NCBI GenBank assembly: GCA_964611205.1
Contig: CAZSZB010000002.1
Location: 10,609-74,608, forward strand
Direction: 5' to 3'
Length of the DNA stretch: 64,000 bases
DNA from: an uncultured Candidatus Saccharibacteria bacterium
Lineage (GTDB): Bacteria; Patescibacteriota; Minisyncoccia; Phycocordibacterales; UBA918
Shown: in pieces, positions 3,854-64,000 of the stretch
Numbering within the stretch: the first letter of the stretch is position 1
Layout of the letters: each line of letters begins with the position of its first letter
Program-made: the position numbers and the translations under genes
Notes under the pieces: model-generated
What the model saw: the letters and a program-made list of their open reading frames with translations, nothing else
Told to the model about the DNA's origin: nothing
Databases searched by the model: none

Positions 3854-4759
3854 CTATTTCATTGCTTCTACCCCCGCGGTTATTTCTGACACCTCAGCTG
3901 TAATGGCCGTCTGGCGAGCTTTGTTATATTTAATTGTTAAAGCTTTGATTACTTCCTTGCTTTTATCGGTAGCATTCTTCATTGCCACCATTCGAGCAGA
4001 ATGCTCAGACGCTTTGCTCTCCAAAAGAGCATGATAAATAATAATTTCAATCAAGCGTGGTATCAGGGATTTTAAAACCTCTTCTGCTGAAGGTTCGATG
4101 GTATAGGACACAATAGCTGTAGCCGGCTCTATTTCTTCACTAAATTTTCCTTTTTTAGGACGGATACCGCGTAAAATATAATGAATTTCTGCTGGATCAA
4201 GCGGTAGAATAGTACGCTTAGTCGGCAACTGTTCGAAAGTAGAAAGAAAATTCTGATAAATAATTTCAATTTCTTTGTAAGCTCCTGTATTAAATCTGTC
4301 TAAAATAACTTTAGACATTTCATAAATATCTGCCATCGTAACAGCATCCGAAACATTATTATGCTCTTCAATGATTTCAAGCTTTTCGCGACGTGCAAAA
4401 TCCCCGGCTTTGCGACCAATACAAATGACTTCTATTTCTGCTCGGTACTTGTGAACTACCTCCTCGGCTTTTTTAATAACAGCACTGTTAACACTACCAG
4501 CCAAACCCTTATCACTAGTGACAATAACCAAAATCCTTTTACCTTCTTCTTTCTTGGTAGTGTAATTGCTGTGTCTTAAGTCTGGTGAGCTAGCTAGACG
4601 AGAAAGAATTCGCATAGCAGCGTGGACATACGGCCGACCAGCGAAAGCTCGTTCTTGAGCTTTACGCATCTTAACCGCTGAAACAGACTCCATGGCTTTG
4701 GTTACCTGTCCGGTTTTCTTGGTAGAAATTATTTTGTTTTTTACTTGTTTAAGTGCCAT
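3854..4759 (-). CDS. atpG: ATP synthase F1 gamma subunit
   Basis: 301 aa. Lies between atpA and atpD. The N-terminal MALKQVKNKI..TKAMESV motif is typical of gamma. Confidence 0.9.
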   Translation of the reverse strand: MALKQVKNKIISTKKTGQVTKAMESVSAVKMRKAQERAFAGRPYVHAAMRILSRLASSPDLRHSNYTTKKEEGKRILVIVTSDKGLAGSVNSAVIKKAEEVVHKYRAEIEVICIGRKAGDFARREKLEIIEEHNNVSDAVTMADIYEMSKVILDRFNTGAYKEIEIIYQNFLSTFEQLPTKRTILPLDPAEIHYILRGIRPKKGKFSEEIEPATAIVSYTIEPSAEEVLKSLIPRLIEIIIYHALLESKASEHSARMVAMKNATDKSKEVIKALTIKYNKARQTAITAEVSEITAGVEAMK

Positions 4760-4779
4760 AAAATAATGCGAGGATCTTC

Positions 4780-6351
4780 TTAAGCAACAGGTTTGTAGTT
4801 TTGAGGGTGGGCTTCTTTATAGTCTTTAATAGCTTTATCGAGCTTTTCTATTATTTCGTCAGTAAGTTCACGACCTGTTTCAATGTCGGTTAAAATCTCC
4901 TTTCGATCACGTTCTACAAACTCGATAAAAGTCTGTTCAATCTTTCGAGTATTTTCTACTGGGGCTCCAAAGAAGATACCTTGGTTAGCGGCGTAAATAG
5001 CAATCACTTGTTTTTGGAATGGAACCGGTTGGTTTTGGCCCTGTTTCAACAACTCAACATATTTACGACCTGATTCGATACGATTTTTTGTATCTTCATC
5101 AAGATCTGAAGCAAATTGCATAAAAGCCTCTAACTCTCTGAATTGTGCCAATTCAAGACGAATCTTACCTGACACTTTCTTCATCGCTTTAGTTTGAGCG
5201 GAAGAACCTACTCGAGATACAGAAATACCGACATCCAGAGCTGGGCGGATACCTTTATTAAACAAATCAGTATCTAGGAAAATCTGACCATCAGTGATTG
5301 AAATCACGTTAGTTGGAATATAAGCAGACACGTCACCTTCTTGGGTCTCAATAATAGGCAGGGCAGTAATCGATCCACTACCGAGTTCAGCTGAGAGTTT
5401 AGCAGAACGCTCTAATAATCGAGAGTGGAGATAAAAGATATCACCTGGATAAGCTTCGCGTCCCGGCGGACGACGTAGAAGTAGAGACATTTGTCGATAG
5501 GCATTAGCGTGTTTAGATAAGTCATCCAGAATAATCAACACGTCTTTACCTTGCTGCATAAAATATTCACCAATAGCCATGCCTGCAAATGGTGCCAAGA
5601 AAAGAAGTGGTGACGCTTCTGAAGCTGAAGTAGCTACTATTGTTGTGTATTCCATTGCTCCGGCTTCTTCTAACTTAGCCATGATGCTTACAGTTTTTGA
5701 ACGTTTCTGCCCAATAGCTACATATATACAAATTGGTCTTTTTTCTGCTGGCTCGTGTTTCTGGTTGATGATTGTGTCAACAGCAATGGTTGTTTTACCA
5801 GTCTGTCGGTCACCAATAATCAACTCTCTTTGTCCACGACCGATAGGAATCATAGAGTCAATAGCTTTGATACCAGTGTGGATAGGTTCATTAACACTTG
5901 AACGATCCATCACCCCATAAGCAACTCGCTCGATTGGCATGTCTGCTTCCCCTTTTACTGCACCCTTACCGTCAATTGGCTCACCAAGTGGACTGACCAC
6001 TCGTCCAACTATTTCTGGACCAACTGGGATAGAAAGTAGTTTTTCAGTTCGCATTACCCGCATACCCTCTTTTACCCGAGTAGATTCGCCTAGCACTACT
6101 ACTTTAACCACGTCTTCTTCCAAGTTGAGGATCAGACCATAGAGAGCATCCTTAGCAGCAATCGTTTCAGCCAGTGATTTGCCGTCACTATCAGAAAACA
6201 CCACCATTTCCATCATCTGGGCTTCCGAAAGACCGTCAATTTCAGCAATTCCGTCACCAACTGCTGTAACCACACCGATTTCTTTCGGTGCCGATGACAG
6301 GTCGATGTTTTCTATTTCTTGCTTTATTTTATCTATAATGACTGAGCTCAT
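4780..6351 (-). CDS. atpA: ATP synthase F1 alpha subunit
   Basis: 523 aa. Walker A GDRQTGKT. Conserved alpha-subunit blocks. Confidence 0.95.
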   Translation of the reverse strand: MSSVIIDKIKQEIENIDLSSAPKEIGVVTAVGDGIAEIDGLSEAQMMEMVVFSDSDGKSLAETIAAKDALYGLILNLEEDVVKVVVLGESTRVKEGMRVMRTEKLLSIPVGPEIVGRVVSPLGEPIDGKGAVKGEADMPIERVAYGVMDRSSVNEPIHTGIKAIDSMIPIGRGQRELIIGDRQTGKTTIAVDTIINQKHEPAEKRPICIYVAIGQKRSKTVSIMAKLEEAGAMEYTTIVATSASEASPLLFLAPFAGMAIGEYFMQQGKDVLIILDDLSKHANAYRQMSLLLRRPPGREAYPGDIFYLHSRLLERSAKLSAELGSGSITALPIIETQEGDVSAYIPTNVISITDGQIFLDTDLFNKGIRPALDVGISVSRVGSSAQTKAMKKVSGKIRLELAQFRELEAFMQFASDLDEDTKNRIESGRKYVELLKQGQNQPVPFQKQVIAIYAANQGIFFGAPVENTRKIEQTFIEFVERDRKEILTDIETGRELTDEIIEKLDKAIKDYKEAHPQNYKPVA

Positions 6352-8495: not shown

Positions 8496-8754
8496 AATAA
8501 TTCAGGACAATTGAAAATGTGAAATTCTCGTTCAATACGACGGTACCCTCAGAATGTTTGAGAGTCCGGTTATTCACAACTTTGGTCATCCAAAATTACT
8601 TCTAAAAACAAACCAGTTCAATCCAATTTGCGACTGCATATTATCATATTGAAGACGATTGTAAACTTTGACTCTGTTGAAAGAACCTAATCGAGACCTG
8701 GTCTCTAACTTAATTTCTTTGTAAAAGTAGCAAATGGGAGTTCTTAATTTATTT

Positions 8755-8985
8755 TGTGGACCAGACAGGATTCGGTCACTCTCGTGGATATTTTCTTCGT
8801 TCTATGAACTCAAAAATATCTCACTCCCTCGAATCTTACAGATTCTGTACAGGTTTCGCTCTAGCGAGCTGCAACCTTGTAATAAAATCTCCCAGACTTT
8901 ATTACACCATTCGTCGCGGTCCTCGGCTTAAGCCTGCGGACTCCGTCGCGACTCAGTTCGAATCCTGTCAAAGTCTCTCAAAAAC
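8755..8985 (-). repeat. long variant (A1) of the tRNA-linked hairpin element; ends in a third copy of the tRNA-Ala 3' end
   Basis: Read on the minus strand it has GACAGGATTCGAAC, which is the reverse complement of the tRNA-Ala T-arm 3' half. A long GC-rich hairpin follows. Then comes GTAATAAAGTC-TGGGAG-ATTTTATTAC, a hairpin with the family's TGGGAG loop. Then AGGTT..AACCT pairing and a TACAG-AAT-CTGTA hairpin. It ends ..CCGAATCCTGTCTGGTCCACA, which matches 20 nt of the tRNA-Ala 3' end. Confidence 0.5.
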
Positions 8986-9020
8986 AACAAAACCAAAGCA
9001 TTCGCTTTGGTTTTGGTTTT
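8975..9020 (-). terminator. terminator-like hairpin between elements A2 and A1
   Basis: Minus strand reads CCAAAGC-GAAT-GCTTTGG followed by TTTTGTTGTTTTTG. T-rich on both strands, so orientation is ambiguous. Confidence 0.4.
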
Positions 9021-9147
9021 TGTGGACCAGACAGGATTCGAAACATACTGTTTCAGTACAGGTTGTCAGTATTCTTAATGAATTAAGAATACTAGGCAAC
9101 CTCTTCGAATCCTGACGTAAAGCCTCCCAGGCTTTACTTCTGGTCCG
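9021..9147 (-). repeat. tRNA-linked hairpin element A2; candidate structured ncRNA or miniature insertion, built on the tRNA-Ala 3' end
   Basis: Minus strand parses as follows. CGGACCAG-AAG. Then GTAAAGCC-TGGGAG-GCTTTAC, the first hairpin. Then GTCAGGATTCGAAG-AGGTTGCC. Then a 12 bp hairpin AGTATTCTTAAT/TTAAGAATACT. Then GACAACCT, which pairs with AGGTTGCC. Then TACTG-AAA-CAGTA. Then GT-TTCGAATCCTGTCTGGTCCACA. The last 22 nt equal the tRNA-Ala 3' end. The first segments are its reverse complement, split by the YGGGAG hairpin. Confidence 0.6.
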
Positions 9148-9182
9148 AAATAAACAAACCGCAGACAAGCTGCGGTTTATTT
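9148..9182 (-). terminator. terminator-like hairpin directly downstream of tRNA-Ala
   Basis: CCGCAG-CTTGT-CTGCGG followed by TTTGTTTATTT on the minus strand. Confidence 0.5.
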
Positions 9183-9184
9183 TG

Positions 9185-9257
9185 TGGACCAGACAGGATT
9201 CGAACCCGCTGCCTCCTCAGTGCAAATGAGGCGCTCTACCAATTGAGCTACTGGCCC
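9185..9257 (-). tRNA. tRNA-Ala (anticodon UGC)
   Basis: 73 nt cloverleaf, GGGCCAGTAGCTCAATTGGTAGAGCGCCTCATTTGCACTGAGGAGGCAGCGGGTTCGAATCCTGTCTGGTCCA. G3:U70 alanine identity pair. Anticodon loop TTTGCAC. T-loop TTCGAAT. T-stem carries two G.U pairs. CCA is not encoded. Confidence 0.9.
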
Positions 9258-31705: not shown

Positions 31706-31867
31706 GAGAGATGGCTAAGTGGAGCAAAAGTGAAGTGTTTCACTTTTGCTCCGGTCTTCGAACGAAGTGAGAAGATTGGCCGTTGTGAGCGAATGAGAAC
31801 AGGCCAAAGGAGGAAACGTAGTCGAACGCCTAATGAAGAACAAGCGTTCTTACAAAAACAAGTATAT
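31706..31867 (+). repeat. tRNA-Ser 5'-end-initiated repeat unit C1
   Basis: Begins GAGAGATGGCTAAGTGG, a copy of the tRNA-Ser 5' end. A 14 bp hairpin follows (GGAGCAAAAGTGAA-GTGT-TTCACTTTTGCTCC). Then GGTCTTCGAAC. It shares GTTGTGAG and AGGAGGAAAC with unit C2. Ends in a small hairpin. Confidence 0.5.
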
Positions 31868-32029
31868 GGAGAGATGGCTGAGTGGATGAAAAGCAAACTG
31901 CTTTGCTTTTCATCCGGTTTGCGAACCTGAGAGCAAAAAGGTCGTTGTGAGTTTACGAGCAGACCTTAGGAGGAAACCGAATCGAATGCTTATAATACAA
32001 TAAAGCATTACGTAAAAAAACAAATATAC
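31868..32029 (+). repeat. tRNA-Ser 5'-end-initiated repeat unit C2
   Basis: Begins GGAGAGATGGCTGAGTGG. The 14 bp hairpin GGATGAAAAGCAAA-CTG-CTTTGCTTTTCATCC co-varies with the C1 stem. GGTTTGCGAACC, GTTGTGAG and AGGAGGAAAC motifs shared with C1. Confidence 0.5.
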
Positions 32030-32123
32030 GGAGAGATGGCTGAGTGGATGTAATTGTCTGGGAGACAATTACATCCGACCAGAGGGAGGTGGACGAACTT
32101 GTTCGACCCGAAGCCATCTCTTC
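32030..32123 (+). repeat. tRNA-Ser 5'-end-initiated element C3 with a TGGGAG-loop hairpin and closing inverted repeat
   Basis: GGAGAGATGGCT-GAGT. Then the hairpin GGATGTAATTGTC-TGGGAG-ACAATTACATCC. Then ..GGACGAAC-TTG-TTCGACC... Then AGCCATCTCTTC. The ends are an 11-12 nt inverted repeat of the tRNA-Ser 5' end. The loop is the same YGGGAG as in elements A2, B and C4. Confidence 0.55.
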
Positions 32124-32136
32124 AAAAAGAAATAAC

Positions 32137-32223
32137 GGAGAGATGGCTGAGCGGTCGAAGGCGCACGCTTGGAAAGCGTGTGAGGGTTTACGCCCTCCGG
32201 GGGTTCGAATCCCCCTCTCTCCG
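32137..32223 (+). tRNA. tRNA-Ser (anticodon GGA), type II with long variable arm
   Basis: 87 nt. Acceptor GGAGAGA/TCTCTCC. Anticodon arm CACGC-TTGGAAA-GCGTG. Variable arm TGAGGGTTTACGCCCTCC. T-arm GGGGG-TTCGAAT-CCCCC. CCA not encoded. Confidence 0.9.
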
Positions 32224-32230
32224 CGAATAC

Positions 32231-32265: not shown

Positions 32266-32397
32266 GCGGAGAGAGGAGTAACTGTCTGGGAGACAGTTAC
32301 GTGGGATTCGAAAAGCTTTTGAGCTATTTTCAAGCTGGCGTAGAAAATAGCCAAAAGGTATACAGTCCATGTAATGGACGAATCCCCCTCTCTCCGC
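32266..32397 (+). repeat. tRNA-linked hairpin element C4, built on the tRNA-Ser 3' end
   Basis: GCGGAGAGAGG-AG. Then GTAACTGTC-TGGGAG-ACAGTTAC. Then GTGGGATTCGAAAAG-CTTTTGAGC. Then hairpin TATTTTC..GAAAATA. Then GCCAAAAGG. Then hairpin GTCCAT-GTA-ATGGAC. Ends GAATCCCCCTCTCTCCGC, copying the tRNA-Ser 3' end. Same architecture as A2 and B. Confidence 0.6.
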
Positions 32398-32474
32398 TAA
32401 ATTAAAAACCCCCATATTGCCAATTAATCTAGCGGGGGTACTATAGTGAGTAATACAAAATAATAAATTTTATT

Positions 32475-61740: not shown

Positions 61741-61760
61741 AAAAACACTTCCGTGTTTGC
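61741..61760 (-). terminator. terminator-like hairpin downstream of element B
   Basis: Minus strand reads AAACAC-GGAA-GTGTTT followed by TTAG. Confidence 0.35.
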
Positions 61761-61780
61761 GTCGTACCGATTGCTGCCAG

Positions 61781-61903
61781 ACTAGGACTCGAAACTTACA
61801 GTTTCAGTACCCGTTGTCATTATCTTTCATTCTTCAAGATAATAGGCAACGGCTTCGAATCCTAACGTAACAGTCTCCCGGACTGTTACTAGCTTGGCAG
61901 CTC
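61781..61903 (-). repeat. tRNA-linked hairpin element B, built on the tRNA-Gln 3' end
   Basis: Minus strand parses as follows. GAGCTGCCAAGCTAG. Then GTAACAGTC-CGGGAG-ACTGTTAC. Then GTTAGGATTCGAAG-CCGTTGCC. Then hairpin TATTATCTT..AAGATAATG. Then ACAACGG. Then GTACTGAAACTGTAAGT. Then TTCGAGTCCTAGTCTGGCAGC. The last ~21 nt are identical to the tRNA-Gln 3' end and the first segment is its reverse complement. Confidence 0.6.
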
Positions 61904-61910
61904 TAAAGCA

Positions 61911-61935
61911 AAACCACCCTCCTCGGGTGGTTTGT
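61911..61935 (-). terminator. terminator-like hairpin directly downstream of tRNA-Gln
   Basis: ACCACCC-GAGGA-GGGTGGT followed by TTTTGCTTT on the minus strand. Confidence 0.5.
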
Positions 61936-61943
61936 GCTAAGAG

Positions 61944-62014
61944 CTGCCAGACTAGGACTCGAACCTAGATAACATGGACCAGAACCATGTGTCCTACCAT
62001 TAGACGATCTGGCA
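61944..62014 (-). tRNA. tRNA-Gln (anticodon CUG)
   Basis: 71 nt, TGCCAGATCGTCTAATGGTAGGACACATGGTTCTGGTCCATGTTATCTAGGTTCGAGTCCTAGTCTGGCAG. U1-A72 first pair as in bacterial tRNA-Gln. Anticodon loop TTCTGGT. T-arm CTAGG-TTCGAGT-CCTAG. CCA not encoded. Confidence 0.85.
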
Positions 62015-63883: not shown

Positions 63884-64000
63884 TTTTGGCTACTTTTTTT
63901 GTGGCTTTCTTGACTGCTTTTTTTGTGGCTTTTTTAACAGTCTTCTTCGCTGCGCTAGCCTTCCCTGTCATTTTATCTTTAATTTGTTTTCCTTCTTTAA
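63884..64000 (-). CDS. C-terminal end of a Lys/Ala-rich basic protein (histone H1-like or basic tail), truncated at the window edge
   Basis: The minus-strand frame reads ..KEGKQIKDKMTGKASAAKKTVKKATKKAVKKATKKVAKK and stops at a TAG near 63884. The start lies outside the window. Confidence 0.35.

Follow-up and report, generated by a model that had tools for sequence, protein, structure and literature searches.

Structured cassettes with tRNA-matched ends behind tRNA genes of Patescibacteria follow the logic of the tRNA-linked repeats of Escherichia coli

Why would a noncoding element that lies behind a tRNA gene end in the very sequence of that tRNA, while its core recurs behind other tRNAs with other ends? 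The question is raised by element B, a stretch of about 130 nt on the minus strand (61901-61773) downstream of tRNA-Gln(CTG) in a DNA of 64,000 nucleotides from an uncultured Candidatus Saccharibacteria bacterium (the whole stretch is called the 64-kb window below). The tRNA-Gln gene was located by ARAGORN at 61943/61944-62014 of the minus strand, and the Rfam tRNA model RF00005 gave 59.7 bits at 61944-62014. The answer that we favor, at a little better than an even chance, is that element B is a cassette of the type of the tRNA-linked repeats (TLRs) of Escherichia coli, transcribed by read-through from the tRNA gene, matured via its tRNA-like end, and gained and lost by recombination between repeats.

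To define the shared end, the last 21 nt of tRNA-Gln, TTCGAGTCCTAGTCTGGCAGC (direct repeat copy 1, 61963-61943, minus strand), were searched against the window. The 21-mer was found exactly twice, at 61943-61963 and at 61773-61793, and zero chance matches were expected from 100 shuffles even with three mismatches allowed. The second copy runs from tRNA-Gln T54 to C74 and is identical in 21/21 nt, which bears out the original prediction that element B ends like the tRNA. The identity continues through the discriminator G as had been claimed, but it takes in one flanking base (C) and not two; likewise, the element lies where it had been placed, except that a start at 61781 drops its final 8 nt and its true end is at 61773. 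The check that had been proposed, whether any T-loop-like sequence would match equally well, was run. The 14 bases past the T loop (CCTAGTCTGGCAGC, comprising the T-stem 3' strand, the acceptor 3' strand, the discriminator, and C74) are specific to tRNA-Gln, and the elements at tRNA-Ala and tRNA-Ser carry the ends of their own tRNAs. In nearly all tRNA genes of the window and of the other collected loci (given below by L numbers), a C stands right behind the discriminator and the full CCA is absent; in several copies, including those at tRNA-Gln and tRNA-Ser in the window, the direct copy and the arm pairing both end at C74.

Read from the tRNA on the minus strand, the locus begins with trailer 1 (61903-61942), in which the hairpin CCACCC-GAGGA-GGGTGG is followed by TTTTGCTTT. 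Element B then opens, as predicted earlier, with the reverse complement of the tRNA-Gln end: its 5' arm GCTGCCA-A-GCTA (61901-61890), the 5' strand of helix P1, is the reverse complement of TAG-TC-TGGCAGC and pairs with acceptor 3'-strand positions 68-72, discriminator G73, and C74. Trailer 1, the tRNA-Gln 3' end, and the arm together make one long imperfect palindrome. The arm is followed by hairpin P2 (61867-61889; GTAACAGTC/CGGGA/GACTGTTAC, in RNA form GUAACAGUC-CGGGA-GACUGUUAC), which represents the conserved GUAA..YGGGA..UUAC module and is inserted exactly where the inverted tRNA-end copy crosses the junction of T stem and acceptor stem. This hairpin had been noticed before, although its loop has the five bases CGGGA, with a C-G closing pair, and not CGGGAG. 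The GTTAGGATTCGAAG segment (61866-61853) comes next, and at 61854-61864 the P3 5' strand, UAGGAUUCGAA, pairs (one G:U included) with UUCGAGUCCUA, which in the copy corresponds to the T loop and the 3' strand of the T stem. The long variable hairpin P4 (61811-61852) consists of a CCGUUG/CAACGG base, an internal loop (CC/A), and an upper stem of 9 bp, so that the CCGTTG..CAACGG pair reported around a 9-bp hairpin is indeed present at 61852-61811. The GTACTGAAACTGTAAGT segment (61810-61794) was also recognized in the original prediction, which overlooked its 5-bp hairpin; here, the junction GUACU is followed by P5, GAAAC-UGUAA-GUUUC (61791-61810 with the junction). Direct repeat copy 2 (61773-61793), again TTCGAGTCCTAGTCTGGCAGC, supplies the 3' strands of P3 and P1. 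Trailer 2 (61741-61772) closes the locus with the weak hairpin AAACAC-GGAA-GUGUUU (about 61758-61741) and UUUAG. The predicted fold of element B has -52.8 kcal/mol (z = -6.2). Trailer 1, the arm, P2 to P5, and repeat copy 2 form a unit of 170 bp, which can be written as 61773-61942 or equally as 61794-61963 because the 21-nt repeat flanks it.

Element B is one of a family. A profile built from 28 parsed copies matched the window exactly three times, at 9148-9020 (minus), 32268-32399 (plus), and 61899-61771 (minus), and the matches start 36 nt (Ala), 44 nt (Ser), and 44 nt (Gln) past a tRNA in the same orientation. ARAGORN found three tRNAs in the window, so that all three carry an element 36 to 44 nt downstream; no copy was found away from tRNA loci within the window. 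The kinship with an element at tRNA-Ala, proposed earlier, is thus confirmed, and the copy at tRNA-Ser is added to it. The sister element at tRNA-Ala (tRNA 9184-9257) lies at 9020-9148 on the minus strand and has the same core with Ala-matched ends (-62.7 kcal/mol, z = -9.4), and that at tRNA-Ser(GGA) (tRNA 32137-32224) lies at 32266-32398 on the plus strand with Ser-matched ends (-67.3 kcal/mol, z = -9.5). A second tRNA-Ala-linked unit of 266 bp (8752-9017, minus strand) has the same modules reordered, an additional GUCGCGACGG..CCGCGAC hairpin, and, as its terminus, the tRNA-Ala end for the third time at this locus. The Gln, Ala, and Ser loci thus hold one, two, and one units.

Comparison of these elements showed a common plan, in which the 5' half corresponds to the tRNA 3' end in reverse-complement form and is split by the A-GUAA..YGGGA..UUAC-GU hairpin (P2). 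In the Ala element, GGACCAGA and CAGGATTCGAA on the two sides of P2 make up the reverse complement of TTCGAATCCTGTCTGGTCC; in the Ser element, GCGGAGAGAGG and GGGATTCG do the same for CGAATCCCCCTCTCTCCGC; and the Gln element keeps to the plan but for a swapped dinucleotide and a single G:U pair. A single helix of about 19 to 21 bp (P1 plus P3) is predicted to form from the inverted and direct copies, and its 3' strand equals the 3' strand of the acceptor/T arm in the local tRNA. In the place of the T loop stands a junction, GAAR ... UAC N, that bears the long, variable P4 and the short P5 with its UGUAA loop, and P2 would emerge at the place of the tRNA body. The 5' arm is the Watson-Crick complement of the 3' strand and not a copy of the tRNA 5' strand: the Ala elements have an A at position 3, where tRNA-Ala has the G of G3:U70. 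This G3:U70 pair is the main recognition element of alanyl-tRNA synthetase.

Beyond the window, about 60 copies were found by profile in the collected sequence, and every genuine one with a named source came from Patescibacteria. The proteins encoded in the window have closest relatives of 45 to 55% identity, among them a Kaiserbacteria entry, which makes a patescibacterial source of the window itself probable. An 18-base pattern, applied to one genome per species, gave 22 matches, 12 of them genuine, and all 12 belonged to assemblies labeled Paceibacteria, Parcubacteria, Saccharibacteria, or Patescibacteria; a 19-base pattern gave 31 matches in metagenome contigs, about 27 of them genuine. 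Loops and junctions are conserved across lineages labeled Saccharibacteria and Paceibacteria/Parcubacteria. In elements with this core, a stretch of 14 nt or more from the upstream tRNA recurs at the 3' end (one mismatch allowed). Such end-matching was observed with the core behind seven amino-acid types of tRNA (Ala, Ser, Gln, Tyr, His, Asn, and Arg), and elements of other cores show it behind tRNA-Trp and tRNA-Leu. The start of the identity block varies between copies (T54, C56, or T60). Two related species have elements at the orthologous tRNA-Gln locus, and each of these bears the tRNA-Gln end in the version of its own species. The tRNA-Gln locus of related species always has some duplication of its own tRNA-Gln end, the kinds of which differ, and differing cores occur behind the same tRNA among related genomes. 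These results support the claim that the ends follow the host tRNA, both across tRNA types and across species.

To evaluate the predicted structure, 26 distinct copies were aligned with MAFFT and compared with 500 shuffles and with slid registers. Paired alignment cells amounted to 92.8% in the observed alignment versus 72.7% in shuffles, 18/28 pairs changed on both sides, none of the 500 shuffles reached any of the observed measures, and slid registers paired at 34 to 44%. Helix 1 (P2) was 98.2% paired, with 5/9 pairs changing on both sides; the corresponding counts were 6/6 for helix 3 (the P4 base) and 4/5 for helix 4 (P5). The numbers of distinct stem sequences were 17 for P2, 14 for the P4 base, and 18 for P5, and in P3, 202 of 216 cells were Watson-Crick. 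Close orthologues show runs of neighboring compensatory changes (tRNA-Leu elements of L008 and L011). Mini-hairpin motifs of the GCGAAGC/ACGAAGT type were noticed in P4 tips (UGAG..GCGAA; L007, L060, and L041), in a spacer, AGWTGAACGAAGTGAA, that is described below, and in E. coli rtT (GGGCGAAGCGC, L068); d(GCGAAGC) is an unusually stable DNA mini-hairpin.

These data bear first on the idea that such elements are functionless leftovers, i.e., what remains of a partial tRNA duplication after decay, a tRNA pseudogene, or the scar that a lost island left at its attachment site. L065 has a 45-nt tRNA-Gln 3' fragment without a structured core, and truncated or decayed copies stand in the arrays of L061, L060, and L035, as this idea would have it. 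However, the core is kept across distant Patescibacteria with 18/28 compensatory pairs and near-invariant loops, the arm complements the 3' strand perfectly and is no decayed tRNA 5' strand, and the ends stay tRNA-identical while the tRNA diverges between species. Neither the tRNA model nor ARAGORN scores the element, even at E values up to 10 for the model. We regard a leftover as most improbable. For element B itself, a tRNA or tRNA pseudogene was rejected on the same searches, in which ARAGORN and RF00005 (E up to 10) passed over 61773-61901, and on the pairing of its T-loop bases in P3.

The element was also found to be polymorphic in its population, a feature that had escaped the original prediction. 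A contig from another sample of the same organism (L005, Logan SRR31940687_643340) matches the window at 99.9% identity along 2 kb and lacks exactly 170 bp (61942-61773). It reads TTCGAGTCCTAGTCTGGCAGC followed at once by AATCGGTACGACG, so that tRNA-Gln is directly joined to the distal flank of element B; its alignments cover window positions 64000 to 61943 and then 61793 to 61737, the overlap being the 21-nt repeat. Logan contigs are assembled with a word size of k = 31, and because the repeat is shorter than this, the junction should stem from real reads. Judging from this empty-site allele, trailer 2 is probably the native trailer of tRNA-Gln. Three other samples gave contigs (L078, L079, and L081) in which window position 9018 is joined to 8751 over a 23-nt repeat and the 266-bp Ala unit is missing. 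Precise presence/absence alleles thus exist at two loci in one population, with flanks that are otherwise near-identical. Six other Logan contigs (L003, L004, L080, L082, L084, and L086) stop exactly at a tRNA 3' end or just beyond the repeat, which is consistent with assembly-graph branch points from coexisting filled and empty alleles. In another contig (L085 1-694, Logan SRR30309628_675175), joined at window 61946/61947, unrelated DNA stands in the place of tRNA-Gln in front of trailer 1 and element B: a protein gene ends there and ..GAGGAGGCCAGC follows, with the joint at ..CAGC. The arrangement points to an inserted island or a rearrangement right at the 3' end of tRNA-Gln.

Such alleles raise the possibility, which we consider real though doubtful, that the cassette is a non-autonomous mobile DNA element, inserted into and excised from the segment of tRNA genes between T loop and 3' end by an enzyme encoded elsewhere, its hairpins being DNA sites and its RNA incidental. 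Candidates for the enzyme are a recombinase that reads the near-universal T-loop sequence or an enzyme acting on single-stranded DNA hairpins. The classic mark of elements integrated in tRNA genes is reportedly a direct repeat that begins in the T loop and covers a 3' segment of the tRNA (Williams 2002), and the cassette shares with such islands the repeats from T loop to past the 3' end, the upstream copy that keeps the tRNA intact, tandem accretion at one site, and the coexistence of filled and empty alleles. The mobile-DNA explanation also fits the precise alleles at two loci and the tandem, truncated, and chimeric copies in arrays, as well as the differing cores behind the same tRNA and stems made up almost wholly of Watson-Crick pairs, in which G:U and A:C are about equally rare. 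Island-like DNA with defense-like or XRE-type genes adjoins some chimeric copies, and the L085 junction points the same way. When ORFs were clustered over 44 loci, the only recurring neighbors were large serine recombinases, in 4 of the 44 (L012, L028, L054, and L058; e.g., L012 20-1588 and L028 4848-6491, within a few kb of element-bearing tRNA loci). The one in L012, about 4 kb from its element, is accompanied by a gene pair that by eye is AAA-ATPase/RloB-like.

Several observations speak against movement by such an enzyme, however. None of the four recombinases adjoins an element, and no recombinase or transposase gene was found in or adjoining the 170-bp cassette, where the neighbors are housekeeping genes (histidine phosphatase, DnaX, YggT, and ATP synthase genes) and the sole ORF of at least 25 aa overlapping the unit is a 37-aa frame on the opposite strand. 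A single enzyme would face ends that differ at every tRNA, the varying start of identity (T54, C56, or T60) is unlike a fixed crossover point, and no window copy lies off a tRNA locus. In a viral collection of 2.9 million contigs, a pattern scan gave three matches, all of them due to chance and without the hairpin, by which an origin in phages was also rejected. Furthermore, enzyme-free precise loss is expected from slippage between 21- to 23-bp direct repeats that flank an inverted repeat; precise excision of Tn10 is transposase-independent. Unlike tRNA-integrated islands, the cassette has only 170 bp, encodes no integrase or other protein, places the same core behind many tRNAs with matched ends, and contains an inverted repeat copy and a covarying fold. 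A comparison with miniature inverted-repeat transposable elements (MITEs), REP/BIME, and PATE gave a similar picture: all are small, noncoding, hairpin-rich, and multicopy, with inverted termini by a direct repeat and precise loss, whereas the cassette termini are locus-specific copies of the local tRNA, found at tRNA genes only and in a fixed orientation. We know of no cognate transposase for tRNA-linked cassettes. A MITE was rejected since the inverted termini vary by tRNA and all window copies lie at tRNA genes. Simple single-crossover integration, which would leave the original tRNA end distal, fits most loci, but two observations need extra recombination: chimeras occur in both directions, and the expected missing end was not found within the examined flanks of L016, L012, and L057.

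The chimeras lead to the question of what the arm pairs with. The arm fits the upstream tRNA end and its trailer at least as well as its own 3' end, a point overlooked before: the pairing is 14/15 with the former versus 11/12 with the latter at Gln, 18/19 versus 13/14 at Ser, and 21 versus 11 in L035. In two chimeras (L016 and L057), the arm matches the upstream tRNA only. The element in L016 stands behind an interrupted Saccharibacteria tRNA gene (about 4683-4998), whose anticodon loop is split by a group I intron-like insert of about 230 nt and which ARAGORN misses; its arm fits that tRNA, its 3' end fits another tRNA type, and an XRE-type regulator gene and other island-like genes come after it. 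This preference suits another explanation, in which the arm-trailer-tRNA palindrome would be an accessory that serves the tRNA gene in cis, as a terminator (extended or bidirectional), a stalk for processing, or an insulator of the downstream operon; the remainder of the element would then be secondary. The cassette hairpin with its T run is indeed stronger than that of the native trailer. Yet five copies (L007, two in L037, L040, and L055) have an arm that matches their own 3' end only, L019 is armless, and in L041 and L048 an unstructured spacer, AGWTGAACGAAGTGAA, takes the place of the terminator hairpin. The accessory role would leave the conserved P2, P4, and P5 and their loops without a task, pairing of the arm to the acceptor strand of the tRNA itself would harm the tRNA, and the empty-site allele has the tRNA gene without a cassette. 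We hold such an accessory to be very unlikely.

The retailored end with a kept core, which the original prediction took as its key evidence, was found to hold but not to be new, for it is the defining property of the E. coli TLRs. These include the rtT/rttR units of the tyrT operon and the small-RNA genes rrA, rrB, and rrF behind 5S rRNA, and are reportedly to be credited to Egan and Landy (1978) and Rudd (1999). To compare the two groups, we inspected E. coli MG1655. In its tyrT region, the tRNA-Tyr end AATCCTTCCCCCACCACCA (a 19-mer) occurs six times with a period of 178 nt downstream of tyrV, and each rtT unit holds GGGGAAGGAT, which is predicted to pair with the tRNA-end copy and to close a multi-hairpin fold. 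The unit that follows 5S rRNA terminates with the 3' end of 5S (AACTGCCAGGCAT). Inspection by eye shows a CGTTGC..GCAACG.CCCG.AGGG core that it has in common with the tyrT units, while the ends fit 5S rRNA and tRNA-Tyr, respectively. The end repeat has been known since 1978, and the TLRs comprise 22 sequences at ten loci with one to five each, most of them without a known function, the 3' end of a unit being 18 to 19 bp of the upstream tRNA or rRNA 3' end (PMC8144298). Three 5S rRNA-linked TLRs lie between the terminators T1 and T2, arise via read-through of T1, are processed, and bind Hfq and CsrA (PMC8144298).

The likeness between the two groups is close. In both, a stable-RNA gene is directly followed by one to several units (up to five core matches in one locus, L039, of the present family), each unit carries at its 3' end the end of the upstream RNA (18-19 bp in E. 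coli and 21 nt in element B), and an internal complement pairs with the end copy; the layout between two hairpins resembles that of the 5S-linked units. The Patescibacteria elements differ in having their own YGGGA hairpin, UGUAA hairpin, and GAAR/UAC junction, in an inverted copy that usually runs through the acceptor strand to C74, in mirror-image elements that copy the tRNA 5' end, and in their far greater density (3/3 tRNAs in the 64-kb window) and demonstrated population polymorphism. The cassette family follows TLR logic without TLR homology. We found no earlier description for Patescibacteria in the literature searched.

The order of tRNA, hairpin, element, and hairpin at the Gln locus had been described correctly, but the status of the hairpins as terminators is less clear: by eye, the first hairpin with TTTTGCTTT resembles an intrinsic terminator and the second (AAACAC-GGAA-GTGTTT, TTTAG) is weak, and a strict terminator scan calls neither. 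A promoter scan found no promoter-like site on the minus strand, and the distance between the T run and the arm leaves too little space for a promoter. Under the reading as a TLR-type cassette, RNA polymerase would pass through the first hairpin and extend the tRNA-Gln transcript, and the second hairpin would terminate it. The tRNA-end copy and its complement would mimic an acceptor/T-arm helix, and this tRNA-like helix may let tRNA end-processing enzymes release a stable RNA of about 130 nt. Cassettes would be gained, lost, stacked in tandem, and shuffled via recombination at the tRNA-end repeat and the conserved core. In mascRNA (MALAT1), viral 3' tRNA-like structures, and the tRNA-like domain of bacterial Y RNAs, we see a parallel, in that an acceptor/T-arm-like helix could recruit end-processing enzymes. 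Unlike these, the cassette has neither a cloverleaf nor a T loop, its T-loop bases being buried in P3, and it copies the neighboring tRNA exactly rather than generically, apart from A3:U70 in place of G3:U70 at Ala.

Several points weigh against this reading. The anatomy, the family, the covariation, the matching of ends, and the insertion/deletion polymorphism are demonstrated, whereas transcription by read-through, processing, stability, and any functional role of the cassette RNA are inferred. There is no homology to the E. coli TLRs, in which the Patescibacteria profile matches only tRNA T loops (E = 0.11), and Rfam matches only tRNA, with three tRNAs alone reaching the gathering score. 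The Gln and Ser arms reach the discriminator and C74 and extend further into the upstream trailer than into their own flank, a preference that one would not expect of a simple tRNA mimic. L019 (tRNA-Arg) is a minimal version with neither arm nor P2. The stems are nearly pure Watson-Crick, with 13 G:U versus 6 A:C among about 730 stem cells; with so few G:U pairs, there is no clear strand bias of the kind that selection at the RNA level would leave, and the asymmetry was dropped as a proof of such selection because 13 versus 6 non-Watson-Crick pairs are too few. Hairpin-templated mutation of DNA could yield an equal compensatory pattern, and the population polymorphism and turnover between close relatives also fit a purely selfish element.

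A bolder explanation comes in two forms. The cassettes could be self-retargeting mobile RNA genes, in which the inverted copy (arm and GGAUUCGAA) guides insertion into the matching tRNA gene, between its T loop and 3' end, or a genome-wide set of tRNA-specific decoys of the acceptor/T arm, whose targets may be factors that attack single tRNAs, such as tRNA-cleaving toxins, processing enzymes, or synthetases. With a guide or a decoy, it would be understandable that the terminal helix tracks each tRNA so closely on both strands in such small genomes; we judge either to be unlikely. Known guide systems were considered because a scaffold with a 3' segment identical to a tRNA end looks guide-like. 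The homing guides of CRISPR-associated transposons, TnpB/IscB guides, IS110 bridge RNAs, and retrons were rejected, as no large gene lies nearby (no whole-window Pfam scan was made) and the guide would be self-paired. A T-box, a riboswitch, or another known RNA family was excluded by the Rfam searches of three loci, which gave tRNAs alone; cmscan against all of Rfam 15, at E values up to 10, returned nothing credible besides tRNA there. The P2 loop contains GGA and CsrA is bound by the 5S-linked units of E. coli, and the idea of a CsrA/Hfq sponge was followed up; no CsrA or Hfq homologue was found in about 0.5 Mb from incomplete genomes.

The tRNA-Ser locus of the window carries, in addition, elements of mirror-image design. 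Upstream of tRNA-Ser, three tandem elements (31706-32125, plus strand) each start with a copy of the tRNA-Ser 5' end, GGAGAGATGGCTGAGTGGA. The first two have another interior in common (..GGTCGTTGTGAG..AGGAGGAAAC..), and the third (32030-32125) has the CUGGGA hairpin of the family and closes with the complement of the sequence at its own 5' end. Mirror-image types recur before tRNA-Ser genes (L033, L035, L045, and L061), and copies of the 5' end precede tRNA-Gln in L065 and L066, in the latter of which a promoter-like stretch is duplicated too. Some of these elements have a YGGGA hairpin and end in the complement of the copied tRNA 5' end. Extending the TLR-type reading, mirror-image elements may borrow tRNA signals as well, copying the parts needed for the start of transcription and for 5' maturation. 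In L033, L035, L045, L053, L055, and L061 (e.g., L035 477-564), ARAGORN reports a conserved long-arm tRNA-Ser with the anticodon ACT (GGAGAGTTGGCTGAGTGGTCGAAAGCAGCAGTTTACTAAACTGCC...); A34 is unusual for a serine tRNA.

The TLR design of a common core, a copied 3' end, and an internal complement is now found in a distant, genome-reduced lineage as well. In Patescibacteria, the cassettes are abundant, modular, strongly structured, and turning over in populations, which makes the TLR puzzle a general one that is open to comparison. In practical terms, the cassettes break short-read assemblies right at tRNA ends, and the partial tRNA copies that they contain can lead to misannotated tRNAs and integration sites. 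Rearrangements between tRNA loci are also likely to use the cassettes as substrates. If their RNAs are real products, they would constitute an unrecognized class of stable small RNAs in Patescibacteria.

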